Assembly (NCBI RefSeq): GCF_054482595.1
Contig: NZ_CM137008.1
Strand: one strand, 5' to 3'
Length of the DNA: 64,000 bases
Shown here: positions 15,239 through 18,200 of the stretch, one piece after another
How the letters are laid out: each line of letters starts with the position of its first letter
How positions within the stretch are numbered: position 1 is the stretch's first letter
Position numbers: made by a program

Positions 15239-18200
15239 GTATCCTCTGCGATGCCGAAGTCGGGGTTCTACCCTTGAGCTCTTCCTTAAGCATGCCTATT
15301 CTGGATAGCATTACACTGCTTTGAGGGTATCCAGCAACGATAAGAACTGACTAGGGGGTGGAGTTCACCTGCTTCACAATTAGTAAGTTTGCTGTTATTT
15401 AGCTTATTATATGGCTCATCACTGTGACGTTTTTTAGCTAGGAAATGCAATGAAAATTGTGCAGACTAGTCTCTCCGAATCTGTTACTCAGCATCTTGCC
15501 GAGCGCATCCTGTGCGGCGAACTGCCAGCAGGTAGCGTGCTGCCTGGCGAAAATGAACTGGCAACAGTTTCCAGGGGTGGTTGAACTCCGCCTTCGCAAA
15601 ATAAGAGCTTGGCGAAGGATATCGTTACTGTGGCGCAGTTCACGATTTTCACGCTCCAGCGTCTTTCAGACGCTGACGTTCAGCGGTGGTGAGTCCACCA
15701 TCACCGCCCCCGGTATCCCACTCATGCTGGTTGTACACCAGACACGCAGAGTCTCCGGTGTACAGCCAATCTTTGGGACGATGGAACAAATTGCTGCCCA
15801 TTGGGAGTCATATTCGCCCTGATTTTCCAGAACCATACGAACTGTCCGTTGACGGACTTCGGGGGAAAAACGAGTATTTTTAGCCATCCTGTTTACCTCT
15901 TTCTCAGGGAATTTAGTCTCCAAGATTTCCGGGGCGCTTCACTTAGTTATTAATTAAATACCCCCCCGTTTCTTAAGTGGATTTGTTTATTCACATCTCG
16001 TGAATATTAGAACATTATATGATTGTACATCCATATAGAGTTCCGAGGCAGAACGAGAGTGAATCATTGATTGATGCCAACCATAAGGTAATTATCTGGA
16101 AGAGGCCATAGTCTTCCGGAAGATATGAAAATAATATTTTCTTTTGTTCTGCGTCGTGTTATTTTTTCTTTGTCCGTTGGCAAGACGGATAGATAAATAT
16201 TAAAACAAACAGACAAGATTCAGCATAGTTTACCTTCCGTCCCCTGCATCCTGGGGATTTTTTTTACTCAGTGATGGTAATCATACAGCCACAGATAACG
16301 GGAGCGATGTGTATTTTTCGGATCCACAACAGGACTGTTTTGAACAGAGGTATATTTTCCAGCAGTGACTGTCACTGTGGTAGCAAAATAAATATCCTCC
16401 GGCATAGCCGGAGGTTTTTCAAATGGGTGATGCTGCCAACTTACTGATTTAGTGTATGATGGTGTTTTTGAGGTGCTCCAGTGGCTTCTGTTTCTATCAG
16501 CTGTCCCTCCTGTTCAGCTACTGACGGGGTGGTGCGTAACGGCAAAAGCACTGCCGGACATCAGCGCTATCTCTGCTCTCACTGCCGTAAAACATGGCAA
16601 CTGCAGTTCACTTACACCGCTTCTCAACCCGGTACGCACCAGAAAATCATTGATATGGCCATGAATGGCGTTGGATGCCGGGCAACCGCCCGCATTATGG
16701 GCGTTGGCCTCAACACGATTTTCCGCCATTTAAAAAACTCAGGCCGCAGTCGGTAACCTCGCGCATACAGCCGGGCAGTGACGTCATCGTCTGCGCGGAA
16801 ATGGACGAACAGTGGGGATACGTCGGGGCTAAATCGCGCCAGCGCTGGCTGTTTTACGCGTATGACAGGCTCCGGAAGACGGTTGTTGCGCACGTATTCG
16901 GTGAACGCACTATGGCGACGCTGGGGCGTCTTATGAGCCTGCTGTCACCCTTTGACGTGGTGATATGGATGACGGATGGCTGGCCGCTGTATGAATCCCG
17001 CCTGAAGGGAAAGCTGCACGTAATCAGCAAGCGATATACGCAGCGAATTGAGCGGCATAACCTGAATCTGAGGCAGCACCTGGCACGGCTGGGACGGAAG
17101 TCGCTGTCGTTCTCAAAATCGGTGGAGCTGCATGACAAAGTCATCGGGCATTATCTGAACATAAAACACTATCAATAAGTTGGAGTCATTACCCGCTGCA
17201 GGTATAAAATGAAGGTTTTCTGATTTTTCAGGGGCTATTGCAGGCCCCTTTTTACATCATAAATAATGATATCACTTAATGTATTACAAAATGTTATAAC
17301 CAGGGATATTCCCAGAATTTATAATTTCCTCCTGTACTTTTCACCATGACACAGAAACGCTATACATCGCGGTATTTCTGCAGGGTACGGGCTGGATATG
17401 GGTAAGCGTCTCGGTAGAGAGACGGTTAATGAGTCTAAGAATTACTCTTCTTTTAGCTGTGAAATAAGGAGGCGTTAAGAATATTTATTAAATAAAGGCC
17501 CGCTTTTAAAATGGGCCTTAAGGGCAAGACGATGTATAAAATATTTTATCTATTGTTCATAAATTGATACGATAGCTTTACCATCGTTGCCGATAGTTCC
17601 ACGATACATCCCTTCTGTATTGAAACTCATAGTATAATTACCATTCTTATCTAGAACAATGACACCACCACTACCATTAATGTTTTTAACTTCATCAAGC
17701 GCATTTTGAGCTGCTTCTTTCAATGGTGTATTTTTATATTTCACCTGAGCAGCAATATTGTATGCAGTTGAAGTTCTAATAAACATTTCTCCAGTACCTG
17801 TAGCAGAAACAGCAACGGTATTATTATCGGCATAGGTTCCTGCTCCAATTATTGGCGAGTCACCTACGCGTCCGTAACGTTTATTTGTCATACCTCCTGT
17901 TGATGTTCCAGCTGCCAGATTACCATCTTTGTCCAACGCGACTGCTCCAACAGTTCCATATTTATAGTCGTAGTTCTTTGGGGGGAGTAAAAGAGATGCT
18001 GATTTACCATTATGATCAAGGGTTATTTTTTCGTCTTTTAAAGCGTTCTGTAGCTGTTGCCAACGGAAATCAGTTTTGAAATATGCTGGCTCAACCATAA
18101 CTAAGCCTTGCTCTTTTGCAAATAGTTCCGCACCATTAGAGATCATTAATACATGAGGGCTTTTAGTCATAACTGCATAAGCAGCGTTTATAGGGTTTTT

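Follow-up and report, generated by a model that had tools for sequence, protein, structure and literature searches.

The window analysed here is a stretch of 64,000 nucleotides from contig NZ_CM137008.1 (assembly GCF_054482595.1). It comes from Escherichia coli (E. coli), and its best matches among complete genomes are TUM1880 and EEC_W5, with 99.9% identity over positions 1..25000. A copy of the insertion sequence (IS) IS1 lies at 16426..17193, within a genomic island that extends from rikA by way of a second dgo operon and an asparaginase gene to dcuC-pepT and that adjoins cobUST. An earlier note on this DNA had pointed out that the copy has unrelated 9-mers on its two sides and had read it as a probable rearrangement junction, at which recombination between two IS1 copies had joined unrelated segments. 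The element comprises the following features.

16426..17193, plus strand: complete IS1 element (IS1B/IS1C-type sequence), 768 bp
16426..16448, plus strand: left terminal inverted repeat (IRL) GGTGATGCTGCCAACTTACTGAT, read from the sequence
16481..16756, plus strand: insA (91 amino acids), open reading frame with Pfam PF03811 and PF12759
16675..17178, plus strand: insB' frame (DDE transposase part), open reading frame with Pfam PF03400
17171..17193, plus strand: right terminal inverted repeat (IRR) ATCAATAAGTTGGAGTCATTACC, read from the sequence

The element opens with GGTGATGCTGCC at 16426 and closes with GGAGTCATTACC at 17193. Its terminal repeats of about 23 bp are imperfect, with 18 of 23 positions matching when IRL is compared with the reverse complement of IRR. 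In Pfam, the insA product showed the domains PF03811 (Zn_ribbon_InsA, E = 3e-21) and PF12759 (HTH_Tnp_IS1, E = 1.7e-30) and the insB' frame the domain PF03400 (DDE_Tnp_IS1, E = 2.3e-78), all with scores well past the cut-offs. An A6C frameshift motif was read from the sequence at 16732..16738, where a -1 frameshift is predicted to yield InsAB' from insA and insB'; the records of relatives annotate the same IS1 element with a programmed frameshift. The copy is structurally intact and hence potentially active, and every structural hallmark of the IS1 family is present in it save the target duplication. It differs from K-12 IS1B/IS1C at one of 768 positions, namely position 704, where it carries T, the IS1A base, on an otherwise IS1B/C-type sequence. 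Its counterparts in O177:H21, LWY24, MB06173, 19451123 and 23CRST042 are 100% identical to it. The counterpart in TUM1880 differs by G444T alone; T at position 444 also occurs in an IS1 copy downstream in 64EVA (L010 40532..41299) and in K-12 IS1A, and the change may have come about by recurrent mutation or by a minor conversion event involving another IS1 copy.

Target duplications of IS1 measure 8-9 bp (PMC12428005). No direct duplication of any length from 5 to 14 bp was found at the ends of the IS1 at 16426..17193, for which the earlier note had given exact coordinates, and the two 9-mers that touch the IS1 boundary, TTTCAAATG on the left and CGCTGCAGG on the right, match at 2 of 9 positions. 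The note had allowed that a relaxed alignment might yet reveal a degenerate 8-9 bp duplication. No degenerate or shifted duplication was detected at this copy; the best relaxed 9-mer pair matches at 6 of 9 positions, lies 7 and 4 bp off the ends and is at chance level. Two further elements in the window served as comparators, and the perfect duplications ascribed to them were confirmed in both cases.

58004..58771, minus strand: second IS1, inserted in yeeJ, with a perfect 9-bp duplication AGCAAACCC (copies at 57995..58003 and 58772..58780)
31172..32502, no strand assigned: IS2 (1,331 bp), with a 5-bp duplication ATGTG

The two IS1 copies of the window differ from each other at 4 of 768 positions (262, 298, 301 and 304). 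In K-12, the flanking 10-mers of IS1A, IS1B and IS1C do not match each other. K-12 IS1B and IS1C are thus like the copy at 16426..17193 in sequence type and in their unmatched flanking 10-mers, but they lie at other loci and have other histories (a composite-transposon-like argF segment), and the comparison with the K-12 copies covers their flanking 10-mers only. IS1 copies without matching flanks are commonplace, and a target duplication is a sign of a fresh simple insertion, not of IS1 itself.

The DNA on either side of the IS1 was compared with 5,426 complete genomes, a set that does not include the genome of the window. On each side, the adjoining 1.5 kb was found with 100% identity in about 185-225 complete E. 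coli genomes. Nearly all of these have the left and right flanks 7,986-7,988 bp apart, with order and orientation unchanged; in SMS-3-5, for example, the flanks are located at 1117527 and 1125514. An intact 8.4-kb reference stretch is present in 180 complete genomes, of which 60 were seen row by row. A base-by-base reading of both breakpoints placed the IS1 exactly where the SMS-3-5 reference (L001) has positions 4529..12514, that is 7,986 bp. The reference sequence breaks off and resumes exactly at IRL and IRR, and the IS1 has been kept intact. At the left breakpoint the intact reference reads ...GGTTTTTCAAATG followed directly by CGCCTATAAGG..., and at the right breakpoint ...GCAGTCAATGAG followed directly by CGCTGCAGGTATAAAATGA. 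The two junctions in the window carry the following features.

16396..16419, plus strand: terminator-like hairpin CCTCCGGCATAGCCGGAGG with a T run, ending 6 bp before IRL and unchanged in intact genomes
16417..16425, no strand assigned: left junction 9-mer TTTCAAATG, the last DNA before the deleted segment; intact genomes continue with CGCCTATAAGG...
17194..17202, no strand assigned: right junction 9-mer CGCTGCAGG, the first DNA past the deleted segment; intact genomes have ...GCAGTCAATGAG ahead of it
17194..17212, plus strand: last 19 bp of the DUF5339 gene including the stop codon, the other 260 bp being inside the deleted segment

In SMS-3-5 the lost segment contains genes for an MFS transporter, a LacI-family regulator, a nucleoside hydrolase and MgtC/SapB. 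It also holds an IS4 pseudogene, an IS256 pseudogene and most of the DUF5339 gene, which occupies L001 12255..12533, the right flank beginning at L001 12515. The 8-kb segment was not found elsewhere in the window; the sole part of it with a match there is an IS200-type end, made up of its first 107 bp. The IS1 at 16426..17193 is, almost certainly, an IS1-bounded deletion scar from which 7,986 bp have been lost. The comparison with about 180 complete E. coli genomes, of the kind that the earlier note had proposed, thereby upholds its reading of the IS1 as a rearrangement junction. It speaks against the further claim that unrelated segments were joined: the segments are neighbours in one island, separated by 8 kb and with order and orientation kept, which makes the event a simple deletion. 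The state in the window is the derived one, because the DUF5339 gene is truncated and because the near-identical genome 64EVA, in which only 2 columns differ from the window across the 3.5 kb adjoining the left junction, still has the segment intact. The truncation also makes it very unlikely that the 8-kb segment entered later, into an ancestor that already had the IS1. The missing duplication is the footprint of a loss, driven by IS1 in one E. coli lineage, of four clustered nucleoside-related genes (for a transporter, a regulator, a hydrolase and an MgtC-like protein).

The mosaic nature of the surrounding region had been regarded as consistent with the IS1 event. This mosaic (ISEc31, a GntR fragment, a transposase pseudogene, the asparaginase gene and a group II intron remnant) is unchanged in the genomes with the intact 8 kb, and it is therefore older than the IS1 event and no evidence for it. 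The IS629 fragment of the earlier note is probably the element at 14017..15230, which relatives' records annotate as ISEc31. An IS3-family element is indeed located there, but its transposase frame is complete with a programmed frameshift, which gives no obvious reason to call it a fragment. There is also a transposase pseudogene, distinct from this element, at 15568..15887.

Queries spanning the junctions matched the left junction in 13 and the right junction in 14 of the complete genomes, and both in 11. All genomes with one or both of the junctions carry just one IS1 at that place. The spacing of the two junctions is 768 bp in 10 of the 11 genomes (767 bp in EC974) and 3,475 bp in ABW_A19 (L008 10201..13675); the latter genome was considered as an intermediate with two IS1 copies and rejected, since it has one single IS1 that was later split by a 2.7-kb ISCro1 (IS66 family). 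The flanks in the IS1-carrying genomes are near-identical to those in the window and both junctions are common to the 11 genomes, from which it follows that the 8-kb deletion occurred once and was then inherited. Many of the isolates with this deletion come from poultry. The same data bear on the idea that point mutations have eroded the duplication of an ordinary IS1 insertion, or that the pattern is an assembly artefact at a repeat. Either would account for the bare lack of a duplication, but the ends match at 2 of 9 positions with no shifted match, the flanks are 8 kb apart in about 180 genomes, and identical junctions occur in 11 independently assembled complete genomes. Because other genomes have about 8 kb between the flanks, the missing duplication is not a matter of chance or decay. 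Flank spacing, shared junctions and the comparison of the ends together refute this explanation, to which we assign practically no probability.

Five further genomes keep one of the two junctions, and in these the other IS1 end abuts sequence further out.

LWY24: right junction kept; left junction at window 8643; 8644..16425 lost (7,782 bp)
MB06173 and 19451123: right junction kept; left junction at window 8802; 8803..16425 lost (7,623 bp)
23CRST042: left junction kept; right flank from window 18535; 17194..18534 lost (1,341 bp)
CUPS TF 6/1_01: left junction kept; right flank from window 36222; 17194..36221 lost (19,028 bp)

One terminus of the IS1 is fixed in these genomes and the far ends vary: with the right end fixed, the left flank stops at 16425, 8802 or 8643, and with the left end fixed, the right flank starts at 17194, 18535 or 36222. 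The loss in 23CRST042 takes most of the asparaginase gene, of which the first 20 bp remain. The IS1 is the same as the window copy at every position in LWY24, MB06173, 19451123 and 23CRST042. The junction IS1 of CUPS TF 6/1_01 is mosaic, being of the window type to position 262 and IS1A-like from position 298, and given this mosaic the event that ends at 36222 more likely arose by recombination. As judged from the junction sequences, at least four later deletion events appear to have begun, in descendants, at the left or the right end of this one IS1 copy, and the whole can be described as a putative nested deletion series anchored on this IS1.

Two observations concern the endpoints of the later deletions. 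The left endpoints of two independent deletions, that of LWY24 and that of MB06173/19451123, are only 159 bp apart and both fall in an IS200/IS605 tnpA pseudogene about 7.7 kb from the IS1; the clustering at 8643 and 8802 could reflect a hot spot for IS1 targeting, or selection on hypT and the genes past it may set a limit there. In O177:H21, an extra IS1A-type copy (L002 10380..11147, about window position 18700) with an 8-bp duplication AAATAATA follows the asparaginase gene; it lies 2.3 kb downstream of the junction IS1 and has the same orientation. Recombination between the members of this direct pair could delete the asparaginase gene. The extra copy was considered as the source of the 23CRST042 deletion and rejected, the right junctions being at 18535 and 18702.

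Two standard routes lead to an IS without a duplication at a deletion, namely adjacent deletion and homologous recombination of two direct IS copies (PMC11708052). For the loss of the 8 kb we have a modest preference for an adjacent deletion mediated by the IS1 transposase. The first step would be a normal IS1 insertion with a 9-bp duplication at one of the two present junctions. The predicted precursor junctions would be ...GTCAATGAGCGCTGCAGG joined to GGTGATGCTGCC and GGAGTCATTACC joined to TTTCAAATGCGCCTATAAGG, or the same with 8-bp duplications. The transposase would then join the IS1 ends to a second site about 8 kb off on the same chromosome, in the intramolecular replicative transposition known as the classical IS1 "adjacent deletion", and the intervening DNA would be lost as a circle. 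A single IS1 would be left, with one copy of the original duplication on one side and the new target 9-mer on the other. The same IS1 would later keep producing deletions from both of its ends in descendants.

This route is favoured because of the exact termini, the unchanged and intact IS1 and the nested series on both sides, and because a fixed IS terminus with variable distal endpoints is its defining pattern. IS1-mediated adjacent deletions were reportedly described by Reif and Saedler in 1975. The window resembles IS1 adjacent deletions in that the loss starts exactly at the IS1 terminus, the IS1 is intact and has kept its orientation, no duplication is present and the distal ends vary among relatives; unlike the classical cases, it was reconstructed from natural isolates alone, and both ends of one copy were used in different descendants. 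Adjacent deletions by intramolecular replicative transposition start exactly at the IS terminus, have variable target ends and are typical for IS1/Tn9 (PMC9330008). IS1 moved only replicatively within the chromosome (PMC12428005), a paper that cites Turlan and Chandler (1995, EMBO J 14:5410) for replicative deletions by IS1. Stepwise growth of IS-adjacent deletions has been directly seen in the Lenski long-term evolution lines (PMC11708052). The IS150-adjacent deletions of that experiment are similar to the present case, with an IS lacking a duplication at scars that were enlarged later from the same copy, but IS150 belongs to the IS3 family and not to the IS1 family, and there earlier time points supplied the precursor (PMC11708052).

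A RecA-dependent crossover between two direct IS1 copies, one inserted at TTTCAAATG and the other at CGCTGCAGG, both flanked by duplications of their own, could also have excised the 8 kb, and we regard this as a real though lesser possibility. The remaining IS1 would then be a hybrid with one half-duplication from each parent. Recombination of this kind yields exactly the end state seen. Relatives do carry IS1 copies in direct orientation within this island, at spacings from a few kb to tens of kb, namely the copy of O177:H21 described above and one in 64EVA at the equivalent of window position 33311, and the mosaic IS1 of CUPS TF 6/1_01 indicates that recombination or conversion with a second IS1 does take place at this element. 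The IS1A-type base at position 704 on the IS1B/C-type copy of the window would fit as well, although one site is not enough to decide. This explanation requires two independent insertions and a crossover, however, and neither a single insertion nor both with the intact segment were found in the genomes, the metagenome scans or the fusion-protein look-up. IS1 copies in these genomes are polymorphic, differing at 4-7 sites, yet the junction IS1 has no mosaic except at that one site, and the IS1 came through three further deletion events in relatives with 100% identity. A mosaic IS1 marks the one derivative that clearly used a second IS1, while the window copy and three of the four further events are without foreign polymorphism, which again argues for adjacent deletion. 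Of the recombination between two IS1 copies proposed in the earlier note it therefore stands that it is one of the two standard routes, but nothing favours it over adjacent deletion.

The earlier note had also suggested that an IS1 copy carrying the complementary half-duplications might be found elsewhere. Synthetic sequences were used as queries for the reciprocal junctions, one consisting of the reference up to and including CGCTGCAGG followed by IRL and the other of IRR followed by TTTCAAATG and the reference. With a threshold of at least 80% coverage, neither was found in any of the 5,426 complete genomes. Matches with 77% coverage to one of the junctions were dismissed as chance neighbours, in which an IS1 lies beside an IS200C copy. 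Two scans of metagenome contigs for the reciprocal junctions as exact 35-37-mers gave no matches, and the predicted DUF5339::IS1 fusion protein (...SMSAAGVMLPTY) is not on record in an exact look-up against an index of 153 billion genes. The wild-type DUF5339 protein is found on at least 1,000 contigs of the same index, and the longer members of its cluster are N-terminal variants, not C-terminal fusions (40 of 171 members read). As the reciprocal product of the deletion is the lost circle, no IS1 with complementary half-duplications is expected elsewhere.

The lack of a precursor in any collection searched would also fit a one-step event, in which the arrival of IS1 and the loss of the 8 kb took place in one reaction with no duplication and no precursor at any time, or a deletion of the type caused by the IS-excision-enhancer (IEE), which leaves the IS intact. 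Cases in which an IS moved along with a large rearrangement and made no duplication have been described, and a one-step route was proposed for some IS5 and IS481 movements (PMC11708052). Elements of the IS1 family are substrates of IEE, which can cause large deletions next to an IS that itself stays intact (PMC9330008). A short-lived intermediate is expected to be missing from sampled genomes anyway, however, and in the long-term evolution lines a look at earlier time points showed 14 of 14 cases of an IS with a deletion to be multistep adjacent deletions (PMC11708052). We consider such an event improbable. If it were true, this IS1 and the five relatives with further deletions would form a natural series in which that route could be studied for IS1.

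Several points weigh against adjacent deletion as the route of the loss. Its two-step history is one that we infer, no intermediate having been observed: an IS1 with its duplication and the 8 kb still present was not found in the 5,426 genomes, the two metagenome scans or the fusion-protein look-up. Sequence alone cannot tell an adjacent deletion from the recombination of two identical direct IS1 copies, and a fresh identical daughter copy of IS1 would recombine without leaving a mosaic trace. The base at position 704 could be a trace of recombination, and direct IS1 copies occur nearby in relatives. An IS1 elsewhere in the 8-kb segment may exist in some genome, the row-by-row view having covered 60 of the 180 intact ones.

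IS1-driven deletion of this sort is already known and well understood, and the locus adds nothing new on the mechanism. Its value lies mainly in correct annotation, with the putative nested series on one IS1 copy as a small addition, and the scar could serve as a lineage marker. The same IS1 copy appears since to have taken out another 1.3 to 19 kb in at least four separate descendants; the second dgo operon and the asparaginase gene are among these losses. Read in this way, the locus would clearly illustrate, in natural isolates, a stepwise reductive evolution anchored on an IS.

The first 107 bp of the lost segment belong to a further mobile element. L001 4526..4632 is an inverted copy (104 of 107 positions identical) of the end of an IS200/IS605-type element at window 8840..8946, the tnpA pseudogene of which lies at 8417..8873. 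The left breakpoint of the IS1 is within 3 bp of the edge of this remnant, and the IS200C matches met in the search for reciprocal junctions agree with its identity as IS200.

The two comparator insertions were not found in the genome collection: the second IS1 (58004..58771) is absent from all of its complete genomes, and the IS2 at 31172..32502 is in none of them, the top matches included. Judged against M172-1 (L011 19968..27044), the second IS1 hit yeeJ, which encodes an inverse autotransporter adhesin, 36 bp inside its stop-codon end. Judged against 64EVA, the IS2 site is about 40 bp upstream of a gene of the anaerobic C4-dicarboxylate transporter family.

The dgoK gene of the island (minus strand, 11257..12135) carries 7 substitutions within 83 bp (11935..12017) that, among six related islands, the window alone has. 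In all 7 cases the base is that of the native chromosomal dgoK of K-12, and 20 other differences between the paralogues stay of the island type. The tract at 11935..12017 is a short gene-conversion tract, by which sequence of the native dgo operon was transferred to the second dgo operon of the island.

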